The notes under the pieces are model-generated. The model was not told the DNA's origin and did no database searches. It worked only from the letters and a program-made list of their open reading frames with translations. The position numbers and the translations under genes are program-made. From Alphaproteobacteria bacterium (GTDB taxonomy: Bacteria > Pseudomonadota > Alphaproteobacteria > Rhodobacterales > Rhodobacteraceae), in NCBI GenBank assembly GCA_030427405.1, contig JAUHXK010000008.1, forward strand, positions 181,645 through 245,644: 64,000 nucleotides of DNA. The letters run 5' to 3'. Positions 46,934 to 55,282 of the stretch are shown in pieces. The number at the start of each line of letters is the position of its first letter. Positions within the stretch are counted from its first letter, which is position 1.

Positions 46934-46980
46934 GTCCACGCGTAATCCATAGTAGGAATTGGATTTTTGATGAGGACCCA

Positions 46981-47850
46981 ATGACCGGATCGGACAACGG
47001 CGCAATCGAAACCTACTTTCGCAATGACGCCCCCAAGGACGTTCGCCAGGCAATCGAAAAGGCGAAAAAGGATGACATCCTCAACCCGAGCTATCCGTAT
47101 TCGGAACGGATGAAGGGCAAGGATTATGACGCCGAAATGGATGCGCTGCAGATTGAATTGGTCAAGATGCAATCCTGGCTCAGGCAATCGGGGCAGCGGG
47201 TCGCTCTTGTATTCGAAGGTCGGGACGCGGCTGGCAAGGGCGGCACGATCAAGAGGTTTCGCGAGAACCTGAACCCACGGGGCGCGCGGAACGTGGCGCT
47301 TAGCAAACCGTCGGATGCAGAGCGCAGCCAGTGGTATTTTCAACGCTACATCACCCATCTTCCGTCAGCAGGCGAAATCGTGTTCTTCGATCGCAGCTGG
47401 TACAACCGCGGCGTCGTGGAAAATGTCTTTGGATTCTGCACCCCGGAAGAACGTGAACGGTTTTTCCGCCAGGTTCTGCCCCTTGAAACCGGGTTGGTGA
47501 ACGACGGCATCCATCTGTTCAAATTCTGGCTCAATGTCGGTCGGGCCGAACAGCTAAACCGGTTCCTTGCACGCGAAACGGACCCGTTGAAGCAATGGAA
47601 GTTGAGCCCGATCGACATTGCCGGCCTTGCCAAATGGGATGCCTACAGCCAATCCATCGCGGAAACGCTGACCCGTTCGCATTCCGAACGCTGCCCCTGG
47701 ACGATCATTCGGTCCGATGACAAGAAACGCGCCCGCTTGGCGGCCATCCGAACCGTGCTGAGCGCGCTGGACTATGACCAAAAGGACCGCAAAGCCATCG
47801 GAGAAGTAGATGCCAGCATCTGCGGCGGACCGGAAATGTGGGATTCTTGA
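46981..47850 (+). CDS. ppk2: Polyphosphate kinase 2
   Basis: [25 protein letters not shown] and SDDKKRAR. Confidence 0.95.
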
Positions 47851-47990
47851 CCTGATGCGACCCTTGTTTTTCGCCGTTTGGCCAATAGGTTGCTATTCGT
47901 GACACAGTTTGCGCCATCATCCTGGCCAGCAAAGAGCCGGACATCAGAACCAGCCCAGCGGCCCGCCAAATGGGGGTGTTTGAACACGCG

Positions 47991-48605
47991 ATGACCAAAC
48001 GCGGGTATCATCATGGCAACCTCAAGCAAGCCCTGATCGAAGCGGCCCTGTCGCTGATCGAAGACAAGGGGCCGACCGGGTTTACCCTGTCCGAAGCGGC
48101 CAAAACCGCCGGCGTGACCCCGGCGGCGGTCTATCGCCATTACCACGGTCGCGAAGACCTGATCGCCGAGGCGGCGCGGCAAGGGTTCGAAATGTTCGCG
48201 GACCTGATGCAATTTGCTTATGACAAGGGCCAACCCTCGGCGCTGGCTGCGTTCGAGGCCACCGGGCGCGCCTATCTGGCATTTGCGCGCAAGCATCCCG
48301 GACACTACATCGCGATGTTCGAAAGCGGTATCTCACCGAACCGGACGCCCGAACTGGCGATGGCGGCAAATAGGGCCAAGGGCGTGCTGGAAAAGGCGGC
48401 CGAGGATCTTTCGCAGCACATCCCACCTGACAAGCGCCCGCCCGCGTCAATGTTCAGCGCACATATCTGGGCAATGAGCCACGGGGTTGTCGAGCTTTAT
48501 GCGCGCAACACCGGGGCAAGCTCGCCCTTCCCGCCCGAAGACCTTCTGGAATCCGGGATCGGTATCTATCTGCGTGGATTGGGGCTTGTGCCGCCCGACG
48601 CGTGA
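47991..48605 (+). CDS. TetR/AcrR family regulator
   Basis: YHHGNLKQAL...TLSEAAKTAGVTPAAVYRHY. Confidence 0.92.
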   Translation: MTKRGYHHGNLKQALIEAALSLIEDKGPTGFTLSEAAKTAGVTPAAVYRHYHGREDLIAEAARQGFEMFADLMQFAYDKGQPSALAAFEATGRAYLAFARKHPGHYIAMFESGISPNRTPELAMAANRAKGVLEKAAEDLSQHIPPDKRPPASMFSAHIWAMSHGVVELYARNTGASSPFPPEDLLESGIGIYLRGLGLVPPDA

Positions 48606-48612
48606 CACCGGG

Positions 48613-49671
48613 CTAAAACGCCCTTCTCCCCTGCGGCACGTTCAGGCGCGAGGTGACGTTGATCAGGTCCTTCACGCCAATCCCCTTGATGTCGACCGGA
48701 CCGATATCCGACACTTGGAACTCGTCGATCAGCGCGTATTTCATCTCTTCCGGTGCGACGATATGCATGGGGTTGGCAAAGACCTGCAACCGCGATGCCA
48801 GGTTCACGGCCGGGCCGAACACGTCATAAACGTATTTCTGAATTCCAACGACCGAACCGACCGCCGCCCCCATTCCCAGGCCGACGCGCGCCTGCCATTT
48901 ATGGGGGTGGCTTTCGTTGCGCCGCTCCAGGTAGCGCAGGAACCGCACCGCGCAATGTGCAACGGCGGTTGCGTGATCGGGGGTGGCGTCCGGCATTCCG
49001 GAAACTGCCAGATAGGCGTCACCGATGGTCTTGATCCGTTCACAGCCGAATTGTTCAACGATCCGGTCGAAGGCGGTGAAGATGTCATTCAACTCGCTGA
49101 GGGTGACGGTCGGGTCCGTTTTGGCCGCGAAATCAGTGAACCCGACGAAATCCAACATGACCACTGACACCTGATCGAACAGCTGAGGCGTGACCACCCC
49201 GAAGGTTTTGAACTCTTCGTAAACGGCACGCGGCATCAGGTTGAGCAGCAGCCGCTCCACCCGCTCTTTTTCCCTCTCCAGTTCGCGCGTATTGCGTTCG
49301 ACCATGGTAGAATAACTGTCGATCATGCTTTCAAGTTCGCGAATTCGGGTGATGTTCTGACATTCGACGACCAGAATCTGTTCGTCCATCCCGTTGGCCA
49401 GCGAAATAGAGGTGGCAAAGATAAGGGTCCGGCGCTTGGGTTTGATCTGAAGTTCGGCTGAATACCTCAGGCCTGATTGTTTGACGTCATCCAACTCTCG
49501 GGGGTCAAGGTCGGGCAAGATATCCAGAATGGTCTGGCCCGGTTCGGGGGTGCCGAACCATTCGGCAAAAGGACCGTTGTGAAAGACAATGGCCAAGTCC
49601 GAGGCGCGGCACACGGCGACCCCGACGCCAATCGCGCGCAACAAATGTTCGTTGATGGCCAAAATGCTCAT
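48613..49671 (-). CDS. Class III adenylate cyclase with N-terminal PAS-like domain and signalling helix
   Basis: EKERVERLLLNLMP, LDFVGFT, IKTIGDAY, YDVFG and VNLASRL. Confidence 0.9.
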   Translation of the reverse strand: MSILAINEHLLRAIGVGVAVCRASDLAIVFHNGPFAEWFGTPEPGQTILDILPDLDPRELDDVKQSGLRYSAELQIKPKRRTLIFATSISLANGMDEQILVVECQNITRIRELESMIDSYSTMVERNTRELEREKERVERLLLNLMPRAVYEEFKTFGVVTPQLFDQVSVVMLDFVGFTDFAAKTDPTVTLSELNDIFTAFDRIVEQFGCERIKTIGDAYLAVSGMPDATPDHATAVAHCAVRFLRYLERRNESHPHKWQARVGLGMGAAVGSVVGIQKYVYDVFGPAVNLASRLQVFANPMHIVAPEEMKYALIDEFQVSDIGPVDIKGIGVKDLINVTSRLNVPQGRRAF

Positions 49672-50036
49672 GCAGCGTTCCGGGCGACGATTATAGTGCG
49701 CTTTTCTTCGATGGCAGACAGCGCGACTTGAATGTCCGCATCGGCCATTCCATGCATCTCAAGCGCCTGTGCAAACAGATCGGACATTTCGTTGAAATCG
49801 TCATGTGAGATGTTCAGGTGGCGATGGACCGCCTGTATACGGTCATCGCTGAACGACGCAGGGCCACCTACCAGCGACGAAACGAACTTGGTCTGGTGGT
49901 CGATCAGGCGCGGCATGTCGATATCTTCGAAATAGTCGCCGATCTGGTCGGATTCCAACGCCAGTTCGTAAAAAGACATCACGATCCGGCTGATGGTTTT
50001 GAACCCGCCGTATTTTTCATAGATCGACTGACTCAT
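49668..50036 (-). CDS. Group I truncated (2/2) hemoglobin
   Basis: YEKYGG, SFY (B9-B10), YF (CD1), HQ (E7 region), GGP and proximal His in AVHRHL; stop overlaps the cyclase ATG. Confidence 0.88.
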   Translation of the reverse strand: MSQSIYEKYGGFKTISRIVMSFYELALESDQIGDYFEDIDMPRLIDHQTKFVSSLVGGPASFSDDRIQAVHRHLNISHDDFNEMSDLFAQALEMHGMADADIQVALSAIEEKRTIIVARNAA

Positions 50037-50161
50037 AACAAACACCGGTGCTTACAGGATAAACACCAGAACATTACACCAAAAAGCCTATTTAGTTAAT
50101 GCATAATTGGGCGCCGCTTTGGCGCACCAAAACAGGCCCACATCCTTGCCCGAGTATGGGC

Positions 50162-51151: not shown

Positions 51152-53380
51152 CTATGCGTCCGTGCTGACAAGGGCGCCGCCCCGACAATCCTGAAGGAAA
51201 GACATCAGCTTTTGCGTATCTATCGGCTTTCGGATCAACGTAAACCCGTTCAACGCGCAGGCCTTGTCCAAATCCTCGGACCGGTTGGCCGAGATGACGC
51301 AGGCCGGAACCGAACCGAACTCGGCCGTCAGGTTCTGAATTGCGTCCACACCGGAACGCGCATTGTCCAACTGGTAATCGGCAATGATCAGATCCGGCTG
51401 AATTTCGATTTCGCGCAACAGGCTGGCGGCCTGCTCTTCACCCGCACATTCGATGACATGGACGCCCCAGCTTTCCATCGTCATCGTAAGCGCGTTGCGC
51501 AAATCGCCATCGTTTTCAATCAGCAGGGCAATCGTGCTTTGCGCTATGGCCGCCCCCGAGGCGTTGCCCGCCTCCTTGCCGCCTTGCACAGCGGGCGCCG
51601 AGGGCATCAGCGGCACCGTTACCGAAAACGCGGTTCCCTGGCCTACGCGGGATTGCAACCGGATCGGGTGGTTCAGCAATCCGCATGCCCTTTCGACAAT
51701 CGCCAGACCCAGCCCCATGCCCTCTGCCGCGCTTGCATCCGAATGCAGGCGCTGAAACTCGTGAAACACGATTTCCTGCTGGTCTTCTGATATCCCAATC
51801 CCTGTATCGTGAACCTCGATGCTGACGGCTTTGCCGCGTCGGCGCACGCCCACAAGCACCCTGCCCGTTTCGGTATAGCGGATGGCATTTGACACCAGGT
51901 TCTGCAGAATTCTGCGCAAATAGCTGGCGTCGCTGCGCACCACGATGCTGGTCGGAACCAGGTGAAACTCCAGCCCCTTGGCCTGTGCAACGGGCCGGAA
52001 GGCATCCCCCAACTGGGTGAACAACTCGCCCAGCGGAACCGCGGATTCATGCACCGACGCGCGCCCCGAATCCAGTTTCGAGATATCCAGAAGTGCTTCG
52101 AGGATATGCTCGACACTGTTCAGCGCGCTTTCCGCCTTTTCCGAAACCGCCCTTGCATCCATTTCGTCCAACCCCCGGCCAAGGGCTGCGACATAAAGCT
52201 TGGCCGCCGACAGCGGTTGCAACAGGTCATGGCTGGCCGCAGCCACAAAGCGCGATTTAGAGGCATTCGCCCGCTCGGCGTCTTTGAGCGCGTCGGCAAG
52301 CTCTTCGGTGCGCGCCTCGACACGATGTTCCAAAAGTTCCTTGGCCTCGACCAGCGCCTTGGCCGATTTTGTCTCGTCGGTAATATCGGTAAACGAGATA
52401 ACGAAACCGCGGTCCGGCATCTCCTGCGCAAATACCGACAGAATTTTGGAACGCCCGCTATGTATCTGCAGGTTAAGCGGCGACCGCTCGGTACTGCTGT
52501 CGATCCAGGCCAGGAATTCGGCACTGGTCGCGCCGCCCTCGAACCGAATGTTCGAGCCCAGGCGTTTGAAAATTGAAGAAAATTGCGATCCCATGCGAAA
52601 CTCGGCCGTGGGAATGGCAAGCAGCTCGCTGGCCCGGTTGTTCCACCCCACCAGCCGCTGTTTCTTGTCAAAGATGCACACGCCCTGGTCGATATGTTCC
52701 AGCGTGGCCCGGATCAGCCGCGCCTGATCGTCAAGAAGCCTGTCCCTTTCTTGTCGCTCAATGCGCATGATATCCGAGACATCGGTCTGCAGGATGACGG
52801 TTCCGCCATCGGGGGTCCGATGTTCCGAGACCTGAATCCAGCGGTTGCCGGTCAGGCGGACATTAAAGACAACATGGTCATCCGCATGCCGCGCCATGCG
52901 CTGCGTGACCCAATCTTGCGCGGTTTCGTTCTCGGGCAACGACAGGTATTCCGACTGGCTGACAAGCGCGACATAGTCGAAAAACCGCAAGCCGGGCAGC
53001 AATTTGTCCTGAATATCGGGCATGTGCATGCCAAAACGGCTGTTGCACATGACCAGGTCCTCATCGAGGTTGAACAGGGCAAACCCTTCCCGAACCGTTT
53101 CAATCGCATTGGCCAGGTTGGACCGCGCCGCTTCGGTTTCCCGGTTCGCCTCGGCCAGACGGGCGTTGGAATCGTTGAGAAGATCAAGCGCGCGTTCCAG
53201 ATCATGGGTGCGCGCGCGCACCTCTTCCTCAAGCATCGCCGCGCGCTGAAACTGCGCATAGGCCGCACCCGTGGCGTCGGTCGATTCCTCGACCCGGCGC
53301 ATCAGCGCAGCCGCGATTTTCAGCAGCTTTTCGTTCTGACGTTCCAGCGGGTCATTCGGGTCGATCAGGGACTGATGCAT
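51152..53380 (-). CDS. PAS-domain hybrid sensor histidine kinase (NahK/ErcS-like)
   Basis: Two PAS-like segments, AAASHDLLQPL H-box, N/G boxes and a C-terminal receiver domain (IIADYQL). Confidence 0.9.
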   Translation of the reverse strand: MHQSLIDPNDPLERQNEKLLKIAAALMRRVEESTDATGAAYAQFQRAAMLEEEVRARTHDLERALDLLNDSNARLAEANRETEAARSNLANAIETVREGFALFNLDEDLVMCNSRFGMHMPDIQDKLLPGLRFFDYVALVSQSEYLSLPENETAQDWVTQRMARHADDHVVFNVRLTGNRWIQVSEHRTPDGGTVILQTDVSDIMRIERQERDRLLDDQARLIRATLEHIDQGVCIFDKKQRLVGWNNRASELLAIPTAEFRMGSQFSSIFKRLGSNIRFEGGATSAEFLAWIDSSTERSPLNLQIHSGRSKILSVFAQEMPDRGFVISFTDITDETKSAKALVEAKELLEHRVEARTEELADALKDAERANASKSRFVAAASHDLLQPLSAAKLYVAALGRGLDEMDARAVSEKAESALNSVEHILEALLDISKLDSGRASVHESAVPLGELFTQLGDAFRPVAQAKGLEFHLVPTSIVVRSDASYLRRILQNLVSNAIRYTETGRVLVGVRRRGKAVSIEVHDTGIGISEDQQEIVFHEFQRLHSDASAAEGMGLGLAIVERACGLLNHPIRLQSRVGQGTAFSVTVPLMPSAPAVQGGKEAGNASGAAIAQSTIALLIENDGDLRNALTMTMESWGVHVIECAGEEQAASLLREIEIQPDLIIADYQLDNARSGVDAIQNLTAEFGSVPACVISANRSEDLDKACALNGFTLIRKPIDTQKLMSFLQDCRGGALVSTDA

Positions 53381-53386
53381 ATCAGG

Positions 53387-54553
53387 TCATTTTGCCGGAG
53401 GATAAATGGCAACCCCCGTCAGGGTCTGGTTCACATGCAGCGAATTATACTGCTCTCCGTAGGTCGAGAACCCCACCACATGGTTCTTGGCCAGCACCTT
53501 GGACAACGCGCCGGTCATCTGTTTTTCCTGGGCTTCCAGCCGTCGCAGAAGACAGTCGCAACCCAAAATGGTGTCGGGCTGCATTTCGGCCGTCAGAACC
53601 GAGATTTCCTGTTCCAGATGCCGCACCATGTCCAGCGGTTCCGCCAACGTCAGGACCAGGCCTTCGTCGATTGCGGAAAAGAACACCAGGTCGCCATTGC
53701 CCGCGACCCGCTGGATCGCACGCACGTGATGCTGTCCGCCGATCTGGACAACGACCGGATGCGCGGCAAAGGTAAACGCGGTCAGTTGCTCGGGGTCTTT
53801 GCCCAGAATGCGCGCATATTCGCGCGCCGCTGGCTCTGCGTTGATTTCGCGCACGACCCGGCGCGCCGGGTCCGCATCCGTGACGACCATGCGCTGTGCG
53901 CTTGGCACCAGGTGGTCCGATTTGAACACCTTGATCGGGCAGTTTGTGCGCACCTGGGTCAGGATGGCTGCATTTTCAAGCGCCTTGCCTTCGTGCAGGA
54001 CAAAGGTATGCCCAAAGGCCGTTCCGTCCCCCGCTGATCCGCCAAACAGCGGAACCGGCCCCAGCCCGACCGCCAGTTCCGATGTCAGATTGTCCTCTTT
54101 GGTCGACAACCCGTCGATCATCAGAAAGGTGAATTCGTGATGCCAATCCGGTTGCGCCAACATCATGGCGTTTCGGTTCCGGATCATCTCATCAATGATG
54201 TGCTGCGCATTGAACCTGTCGAGATCGGGCACCAACACCACGCGCGTCTGGAAATGCGACTGCGGGAACCCGATGGCGACAATCTGATCTTCGCTATAGC
54301 CTTCGTCAGCCAGTTCGCCAGCCGTGGTACAGCCGACGACCTGCGTGGGTGCAAAGGCGGCTTCGGCCTCGGCGATAACCGCGGCGGCATCAGCGTTTGC
54401 GCTGACGAACAAAATGACAAGCGCCAGCTTGTCTTCGCCCAGCAACTGGACGATCTCTTTCACCGGTTCATCCGAGTCGTATCGGGCGAACGCGGTTTTT
54501 ACGATGCCTGGCGCTCGGGCGCAGGCTGATGCCCACCCGGCAGCTTGGTTCAT
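53387..54553 (-). CDS. FIST-domain sensor (NosP-like)
   Basis: VVGCTTAGE, IDGLS, LFGGSAGDG and GFSTYGEQ. Confidence 0.9.
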   Translation of the reverse strand: MNQAAGWASACARAPGIVKTAFARYDSDEPVKEIVQLLGEDKLALVILFVSANADAAAVIAEAEAAFAPTQVVGCTTAGELADEGYSEDQIVAIGFPQSHFQTRVVLVPDLDRFNAQHIIDEMIRNRNAMMLAQPDWHHEFTFLMIDGLSTKEDNLTSELAVGLGPVPLFGGSAGDGTAFGHTFVLHEGKALENAAILTQVRTNCPIKVFKSDHLVPSAQRMVVTDADPARRVVREINAEPAAREYARILGKDPEQLTAFTFAAHPVVVQIGGQHHVRAIQRVAGNGDLVFFSAIDEGLVLTLAEPLDMVRHLEQEISVLTAEMQPDTILGCDCLLRRLEAQEKQMTGALSKVLAKNHVVGFSTYGEQYNSLHVNQTLTGVAIYPPAK

Positions 54554-54598: not shown

Positions 54599-55282
54599 TT
54601 AGCCGTGCTCTTGCAAGACGCTGGCAAAGGACGCCTTCTTTGCGATCAGCACCGCCTGGGTGCGGCTTTGCACGCCCAGCTTGCGCATGATGGCCGTAAC
54701 ATGCGCCTTTACAGTGGTTTCCGCAATCGACAGGTCAAACGCGATCTGCTTGTTCAGCTTTCCTTCGCAGATCAGGTGCAAAATACGAGCTTGCTGATTG
54801 GTCAACGTGCCCAGTCGGCTGACGGCGTCGCTTTGTTCATCCGTATCATCGGCGTCCAGCAGAACGCATCCCTCGGGCAGGAATGTCCTGCCGTGGGTCA
54901 AAGCCTCGAACGCGGTGCGAAACACGTCCCTTTGGCTGTGTTTGGGAACATACCCGGATGCCCCCGCATGTATGACCTGGCTGATGACCCGGTTGTCCGA
55001 CAGTGACGACACCACGATCACCGGTGCGTCTGCCGCCGACTTGAGGCGCACCAACCCGTCCAGCCCATCCACATCTGGCAGGTTCAGGTCCAGCATGACC
55101 GCGTCAGGCTTTAACCCATTGGCAATCAGGCCAAGCGCAGCTTCAAGCCGATCTGCGGTATGCACCTCTCCGATTTGGGCGACCGACTGCAATGTCATGG
55201 ACAGCGCATCGCAAAACAGCGGGTGATCATCCACGATCAGAACGTTTTCGAAATCCACGTCGTCAACCTTGTTCGCAAGCAT
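54599..55282 (-). CDS. NarL/FixJ-family response regulator (ErbR/AgmR-like)
   Basis: VDDHPLF and LDLNLP receiver; LuxR HTH NKQIAFDLSIAETTVKAHV. Confidence 0.92.
   Translation of the reverse strand: MLANKVDDVDFENVLIVDDHPLFCDALSMTLQSVAQIGEVHTADRLEAALGLIANGLKPDAVMLDLNLPDVDGLDGLVRLKSAADAPVIVVSSLSDNRVISQVIHAGASGYVPKHSQRDVFRTAFEALTHGRTFLPEGCVLLDADDTDEQSDAVSRLGTLTNQQARILHLICEGKLNKQIAFDLSIAETTVKAHVTAIMRKLGVQSRTQAVLIAKKASFASVLQEHG

Follow-up and report, generated by a model that had tools for sequence, protein, structure and literature searches.

A truncated globin gene paired with a PAS-class III cyclase gene in Rhodobacteraceae: a candidate split haem sensor controlling cyclic AMP synthesis

The window analysed here is a stretch of 64,000 nucleotides (nt) from contig JAUHXK010000008.1 (positions 181,645 to 245,644) of an alphaproteobacterium of the family Rhodobacteraceae. 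Its minus strand carries two overlapping genes, one encoding a truncated globin and the other a class III nucleotidyl cyclase with an N-terminal PAS-fold domain (Table 1), which the original prediction, made from the letters of this DNA, had described as a possible split gas sensor. The globin reading frame starts at the ATG at 50036 and stops at 49668. A GTG at 50045 was considered as its start and rejected, because the orthologues begin at the Met encoded by the ATG at 50036. The globin stop codon and the cyclase start codon share the letters ATGA, as had been noticed before. This overlap suggests that translation of the two genes is coupled; in a set of 77 related loci from the Ruegeria clade, most also had a zero-gap junction between globin and cyclase.

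Table 1. Coordinates of the globin-cyclase locus, given as positions in the window
Feature	Position	Strand	Basis
Group I (N-type) truncated globin, 122 residues	49668..50036	-	Pfam Bac_globin, PDB relatives, invariant residues
PAS-helix-class IIIa cyclase, 352 residues	48613..49671	-	Pfam, AlphaFold
ATGA overlap of globin stop and cyclase start	49668..49671	-	Sequence
N-terminal PAS-fold domain of the cyclase, residues 1-106	49354..49671	-	AlphaFold, PDB, profile matches
Signalling helix (coiled coil) and cyclase-transducer-like helix, residues 107-160	49192..49353	-	AlphaFold, conservation
Class IIIa nucleotidyl cyclase catalytic domain, residues 161-341	48649..49191	-	Pfam Guanylate_cyc, PDB matches, alignment A2
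Upstream intergenic region, 125 nt	50037..50161	-	Composition, alignment A3, hairpin

The globin matched the Pfam family Bac_globin (PF01152) with 54.1 bits (cut-off 21, E = 2.3e-14) and, in the same Pfam scan, did not match the Protoglobin family. Its ~20 top matches in the PDB were all group 1 truncated haemoglobins, the nearest solved relatives being those of Tetrahymena, M. tuberculosis, cyanobacteria and Chlamydomonas. The key residues are Gly10-Gly11, Tyr23 (B10), Phe36 (CD1), Leu44 (E7), His47 (E10), Gln48 (E11) and His71 (F8), so that the protein has the Gly-Gly hinge motifs, His F8, Phe CD1, Tyr B10 and Gln E11 by which group I is defined. The earlier assignment to the group I 2/2 globins was therefore correct. 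In an alignment of nine orthologues sharing 39-64% identity (alignment A1), the invariant positions were G10-G11, Y23, F36, D46-H47-Q48-T49-K50-F51 (E9-E14), G57-G58-P59, H71 and R113. Among unique members of the subfamily, His F8 was kept in 173/175, Tyr B10 in 172/172, Phe CD1 in 173/174, Gln E11 in 175/175 and His E10 in 174/175. From these residues we infer that the globin binds haem through His71 (F8).

The histidine at E10 deserves attention. The offsets of the PDB alignments place His47 and His71 of the globin on residues 46 and 70 of the cyanobacterial GlbN, which fits with His46, the residue that we take to be the sixth haem ligand in Synechocystis GlbN. The sixth ligand of hexacoordinate group I globins comes from position E10, which is occupied by Lys in Chlamydomonas THB1, 2 and 4, and the Synechocystis and Synechococcus proteins change structure with ligand (PMC7082302). 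By analogy, the resting state of the globin described here may be bis-histidyl (E10/F8), and its opening upon ligand binding could be the switch.

The closest homologues of the cyclase were Ruegeria proteins with 88-91% identity, and the source genome is assigned to Ruegeria. An AlphaFold model based on a 36-sequence alignment (mean predicted local distance difference test score, pLDDT, 84) placed an N-cap helix and a PAS fold of five strands at residues 3-106 and the cyclase fold at residues 163-341, with a long helix (108-145) and a short one (148-156) between them. In Pfam, the protein matched Guanylate_cyc (PF00211) with 137 bits (E = 6.8e-40) and PAS_8 weakly. The order of PAS-like domain, coiled coil and class III cyclase that had been predicted was thus borne out. 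Modelled alone, the PAS domain reached a pLDDT of 91, and its best PDB matches were LOV domains and the PAS domain of NtrB (template modelling score ~0.7). We also considered whether it was an H-NOX-associated PAS domain and rejected this, because the HNOBA profile scored 17.6 bits, under its cut-off of 23.4, and aligned through its positions 163-214 with the helix only, and because the structure resembled LOV and NtrB rather than the PAS domain of soluble guanylate cyclase (sGC). Neither the globin nor the cyclase matched HNOB (H-NOX) in Pfam, and NCBIfam had no model for either protein. No invariant His or Cys was found in the PAS domain across the alignments of cyclase homologues; for this reason the domain is unlikely to hold haem itself and would need an outside sensor, as does the PAS domain of sGC. 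We propose that it is the docking and receiver domain for the globin.

The helix region that follows (residues 107-160) was the best-conserved part of the cyclase, with a mean identity of 94% over 93 pairs; in the alignments it fell on the helices that precede the catalytic domains of AC5, AC8 and the mycobacterial Cya homologue. These were also the nearest PDB sequences to the catalytic domain (mammalian AC8 and AC5 and mycobacterial Cya, all class IIIa). In an alignment of 36 homologues (alignment A2), the metal-binding D174 and D218, the transition-state residues N290 and R294 and the specificity residues K214 (in IKTIGD) and D283 (in YDVFG) were invariant. All six aligned with their counterparts in the mycobacterial Cya homologue, and the pair of Asp, the Asn and the Arg also aligned with those of mammalian cyclases. 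The catalytic and ATP-type residues listed in the original prediction were accordingly all present. The Lys/Asp pair indicates that the substrate would be ATP and the predicted product cyclic AMP (cAMP), and the occurrence of all catalytic residues in one chain predicts a homodimeric adenylate cyclase.

The conservation of the pairing, for which the original prediction had named a neighbourhood search as the check, was strongly positive in samples of the order, of the class and of metagenomes. Among the 301 genomes of the order sample, 32 contained the globin and 29 the cyclase ortholog, and in 29/29 of the latter the cyclase gene lay 0-30 nt behind that of the globin on the same strand. These included second, paralogous pairs in the same genome as a first one, with a globin ~45% and a cyclase ~61% identical to those of the first pair. 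In a species-level genome collection, a full cyclase was present in 77 of the 80 closest loci (Ruegeria, Leisingera and related genera). The class sample comprised 401 alphaproteobacterial genomes, of which 29, from ~25 families, had a globin of this subfamily. Where the globin match was stronger than E < 1e-40, a PAS-helix-cyclase gene followed directly downstream in 18 of 20 cases, the remainder being one globin at a contig edge and one orphan globin (genome G719). In an additional genome of this sample (G999), the cyclase behind the globin had a divergent N-terminus. The pair was found in 20 of the 21 assessable genomes, and these pairs came from ~20 families. In metagenomes, each of four separate globin clusters (defined at 50% identity) had a gene for a cyclase of ~350 residues directly behind it. 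The motif [LM][IVM]DHQTKF occurred in at least 573 relatives in the species-level genome collection. The adjacency of globin and cyclase is not due to chance and recurs in every sample examined. Because the flanking genes vary beyond the Ruegeria/Leisingera clade, outside of which they are not kept, the conserved unit is the globin-cyclase pair.

Further evidence came from proteins in which the globin and the PAS domain are associated with another output or are fused. Directly behind the globin gene of cluster P0199 we found an overlapping gene for a 320-residue GGDEF protein, the N-terminus of which was matched by the PAS-plus-helix profile (E = 2.4e-8). The PAS profile matched the N-termini both of globin-adjacent partners and of fused proteins. 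P0209 is a natural globin-PAS-GGDEF fusion of 442 residues, and P0186 is a complete globin-PAS protein of 239 residues, the gene of which lies on a 1.3-Mb contig. Both carry a 2/2 globin and not a 3/3 sensor globin. The PAS part of P0186 shared 30% identity with residues 10-105 of the cyclase; a search with this part matched P0186 only. As Rosetta-stone evidence, the fusions indicate that this PAS domain and the globin are functional partners.

Globin domains were also seen in other settings. P0204 has three globin domains and a methyl-accepting chemotaxis protein (MCP) signalling domain, and P0192 an AAA_16 ATPase with a C-terminal globin. Weaker globin matches lay inside open frames of >1000 residues in two alphaproteobacterial genomes (G984:C61:54646-55005 and G1026:C138:22873-23220). 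The top matches of the globin profile (P0121-P0153) were proteins of great length that contained truncated-globin domains in tandem, from 3 to 13 per protein (P0121 has 13 in 1882 residues), and are probably eukaryotic multi-unit T1 globins. An apparent globin fusion in genome G051, a 667-residue open frame, was discarded as a spurious high-G+C frame, the globin beginning at its own ATG.

The host genome encodes 11 class III cyclase domains, nine cyclic nucleoside monophosphate (cNMP)-binding proteins and one H-NOX protein. The sole H-NOX gene (209 residues), on another contig, overlaps the start of a GGDEF-type gene (330 residues; C13:209222-210840, plus strand). This is the canonical arrangement of a stand-alone haem sensor, and the globin-cyclase pair shares its design principle.

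Taken together, these data make it likely, in our opinion, that the globin acts in trans as a haem sensor and regulates the production of cAMP through the PAS domain of the cyclase. A haem sensor acting in trans on the cyclase had been inferred in the original prediction, and the conserved pairing and the two natural globin-PAS fusions now support it in silico. That the two proteins interact physically is suggested by their genomic context. In the mechanism that we envisage, the globin would bind haem through His71 (F8), with His47 (E10) serving as sixth ligand or lying near the iron at rest. A change at the haem (binding of O2, nitric oxide (NO) or CO, or a change in oxidation state) would alter the surface of the E helix of the globin, which would be docked on the cyclase homodimer at its PAS domain. 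From there, the signalling helix and the transducer helix would convey the signal to the catalytic dimer of class IIIa. The synthesis of cAMP would change as a result, and one or more of the cNMP-binding proteins mentioned above would read the cAMP. The signal may thus be O2, NO, CO or the redox state, and regulation could be of either sign.

A broader proposal, in which our belief only slightly outweighs our doubt, is that the whole clade of group I globins with His E10-Gln E11 (D-H-Q-T-K-F) consists of dedicated trans sensors, the cognate PAS domain of which drives a class III cyclase or, in other lineages, a GGDEF enzyme. Displacement of His E10 would be the switch. This would be the first signalling role of a 2/2 globin and an independent bacterial invention of the design of sGC.

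Several observations weigh against a dedicated sensor, and some of them would suit an ordinary enzymatic truncated haemoglobin (acting as an NO dioxygenase or handling O2 or peroxide) that is merely co-transcribed with a PAS-cyclase sensing something else, without any cross-talk. The pocket formed by Tyr B10, Gln E11 and Leu E7 matches that of the NO-dioxygenating trHbN of M. tuberculosis. In the 3 close loci out of 80 that lack a full cyclase (L045, L063 and L062), the globin has remained intact: Ruegeria sp. EL01 and R. meonggei show clean deletions of the cyclase, and Silicibacter lacuscaerulensis ITI-1157 retains only its residues 251-352. The orphan globin of G719 (L132, G719:C1:1253500-1258500) is without a PAS partner. 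As the globin can persist alone, it may also serve another function or interact with another partner. The cyclase was split over three frames in G922, and that of G051 had Arg in place of the specificity Lys and had lost the Asn/Arg motif. In partial Mantel tests on distances, the correlation between globin and PAS domain given the catalytic domain was significant (r = 0.37), but weaker than that between globin and catalytic domain given the PAS domain (r = 0.54), which means that there is no PAS-specific signal of co-evolution; domain-wise distances likewise indicated that the globin and the cyclase as a whole diverge together and did not single out the PAS domain. The presence of AurF-type and OsmC genes next to some pairs is also compatible with an enzymatic globin. 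Such a globin would, however, hardly account for an adjacency that holds down to ~40% globin identity and across ~20 families despite changing flanks, nor for the recurrence of its PAS partner with a GGDEF output or the natural globin-PAS fusions. Furthermore, there is no conserved reductase partner nearby, and the invariance of His E10 sets these globins apart from the detoxifying trHbN. We therefore consider an enzymatic globin without cross-talk quite unlikely. In G719, the next gene on the same strand as the orphan globin encodes the alpha subunit of a Rieske ring-hydroxylating oxygenase.

Two other explanations retain the regulation of the cyclase by the globin but change the nature of the signal or of the sensor. 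The module could sense the redox state or the availability of haem or iron instead of a gas, the ferric/ferrous or apo/holo state of the globin being the signal. In its favour, a bis-histidyl (E10/F8) haem such as the one predicted here would be suited to rapid electron transfer and would bind gases slowly, as cited in PMC7082302, and the genome already has the H-NOX/GGDEF pair for NO. On the other hand, the Tyr B10/Gln E11 network is typical of pockets that stabilise a ligand, and the in silico data do not separate redox from gas sensing; we regard this explanation as unlikely. It is very improbable that the protein is a globin fold without haem, carrying another ligand or acting on the cyclase only as a regulatory subunit with a structural role. 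Non-haem globin sensors do exist, for example RsbR and photoglobin (PMC8717448), but His F8, Phe CD1, Tyr B10 and Gln E11 are near-invariant in the 175 members of the subfamily, and the globin matches the haem-binding group 1 truncated haemoglobins and not the RsbR or photoglobin families.

As to known systems, the original prediction had called the cyclase sGC-like. This holds for the order of PAS domain, coiled coil and cyclase, and the only PDB chains that aligned over the whole 352-residue protein were the alpha and beta chains of sGC (365-400 columns, E ~1e-18), with which it is collinear. It does not hold for family membership, as HNOBA was sub-threshold and the PAS domain, a generic one, has no specific kinship to that of sGC. 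The likeness is one of architectural design: both systems have a haem-protein sensor, a cofactor-free PAS domain, a long helix and a class III cyclase. In sGC, however, the haem domain is an H-NOX domain in the same chain, while here it is a 2/2 globin on a separate polypeptide, and sGC is a heterodimer that uses GTP and has one active site, whereas a homodimer with the ATP-type Lys/Asp pair is predicted here.

A small haem-protein gene upstream of, or overlapping, the gene of an enzyme controlled in trans is also a feature of H-NOX proteins with histidine kinases or GGDEF/EAL enzymes (HaCE) and of NosP (FIST) proteins with kinases. The present pair differs from these in that the fold is that of a truncated globin and that the predicted output is a class III adenylate cyclase, to which the signal would pass by way of a PAS domain dedicated to it. 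In the globin-coupled sensors of the S family (DosC/YddV, HemAT and HemAC-Lm of Leishmania), too, a second-messenger enzyme is under the control of a haem sensor with a globin fold, and HemAC-Lm produces cAMP, as predicted here; their globins, however, are 3/3 (protoglobin-related) and part of a single polypeptide, whereas the globin of the window is 2/2, of group I, and encoded by a separate gene. The M. tuberculosis trHbN, an NO dioxygenase, shares with this globin the fold and Tyr B10, Gln E11 and Leu E7, and the bis-histidyl cyanobacterial GlbN the fold and His E10-Gln E11. We know of no case in which trHbN or GlbN is encoded with, or regulates, a signalling enzyme. The closest bacterial catalytic domain is that of the mycobacterial Cya/Rv1625c-type class IIIa cyclases (37-38% identity), with which the six catalytic residues and the transducer helix are shared. 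Rv1625c, however, has a six-helix membrane anchor, while the present cyclase is soluble and has a PAS domain and a globin partner.

The module would thus combine a haem sensor with a second-messenger enzyme but lacks the defining features of sGC, of the H-NOX and NosP systems and of the S-family sensors. Truncated haemoglobins are widespread, and their accepted roles are enzymatic (NO dioxygenation, O2 or peroxide chemistry), while H-NOX, NosP, haem-PAS and 3/3 sensor globins are the proteins to which signalling through haem is attributed. According to a 2020 review, bacterial chimeric T globins occur only in groups O and P, and sensing is assigned to the S family (PMC7475203). A full-text literature search found no account of a truncated globin that forms a pair with either a cyclase or a GGDEF enzyme, a hit on Legionella being unrelated; as most subscription journals were outside its coverage, a prior description may have been missed. 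If our interpretation is correct, the conserved truncated-globin/PAS-cyclase module would be a new class of sensor and would provide a physiological role for part of the trHbN family. It would link O2, NO or the redox state to cAMP in marine bacteria of the Roseobacter group, and would also offer a simple, soluble two-protein bacterial model for the way in which a haem domain drives a PAS/coiled-coil/cyclase machine such as sGC.

The region upstream of the globin gene had a G+C content of 0.50 against about 0.58-0.60, in line with the AT-rich upstream region of its own that had been ascribed to the pair. It contains a motif (~50071-50100; consensus GCGTTAACAAAACTGnCAATTTGATATAAnCT in relatives) that includes a TTAAC half-site and a TATAA-like box and lies ~30-60 nt before the ATG. 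This motif was kept in Ruegeria, Leisingera and Cribrihabitans independently of the upstream gene (alignment A3), which fits with a candidate promoter proper to the globin-cyclase pair. A hairpin with an 11-bp stem and a T-rich tail (50045-50069, minus strand) stands right before the start codon. Scans of this region for consensus promoters and terminators gave results at chance level, and Rfam gave no match.

On the other side of the pair, PPK2 and TetR genes (46978-48605, plus strand) converge on the cyclase gene, the stop codons being 7 nt apart. Both were kept in 74 of the 80 related loci, including those from which the cyclase has been deleted, and the TetR protein was better conserved (80-95% identity) than the cyclase. 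We read this retention as synteny by descent. Upstream, a gene for a FIST_N/FIST_C protein (53387-54553, minus strand) precedes by 6 nt that of a PAS/HisKA/HATPase/receiver hybrid kinase (51152-53380, minus strand), and is itself preceded by the gene of a LuxR-type response regulator (54599-55282, minus strand). FIST proteins adjoining kinases are the NO sensors of NosP type, so that the FIST protein and hybrid kinase may be another haem sensor system, at a distance of ~1.1 kb from the globin and its cyclase. This proximity appears to be accidental, because neither gene was found within 4 kb in any of the 80 related loci. A functional link of the pair with the FIST, hybrid-kinase and LuxR genes was rejected on these grounds, as was one with a glycosyltransferase gene, which only 34/80 related loci have.

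The neighbours of distant pairs were noted at loci L097-L099, L103-L105 and L100. In two unrelated distant clusters, a gene for an AurF-type di-iron oxygenase lies just upstream of the globin-cyclase pair. L097 has an OsmC gene, and a second globin gene follows its cyclase. L103-L105 have a convergent gene for a CRP-type cNMP-binding regulator and one for a small PycTM-domain protein, and at L100 the cyclase is adjoined by a cNMP-binding kinase (cNMP_binding-HATPase protein).

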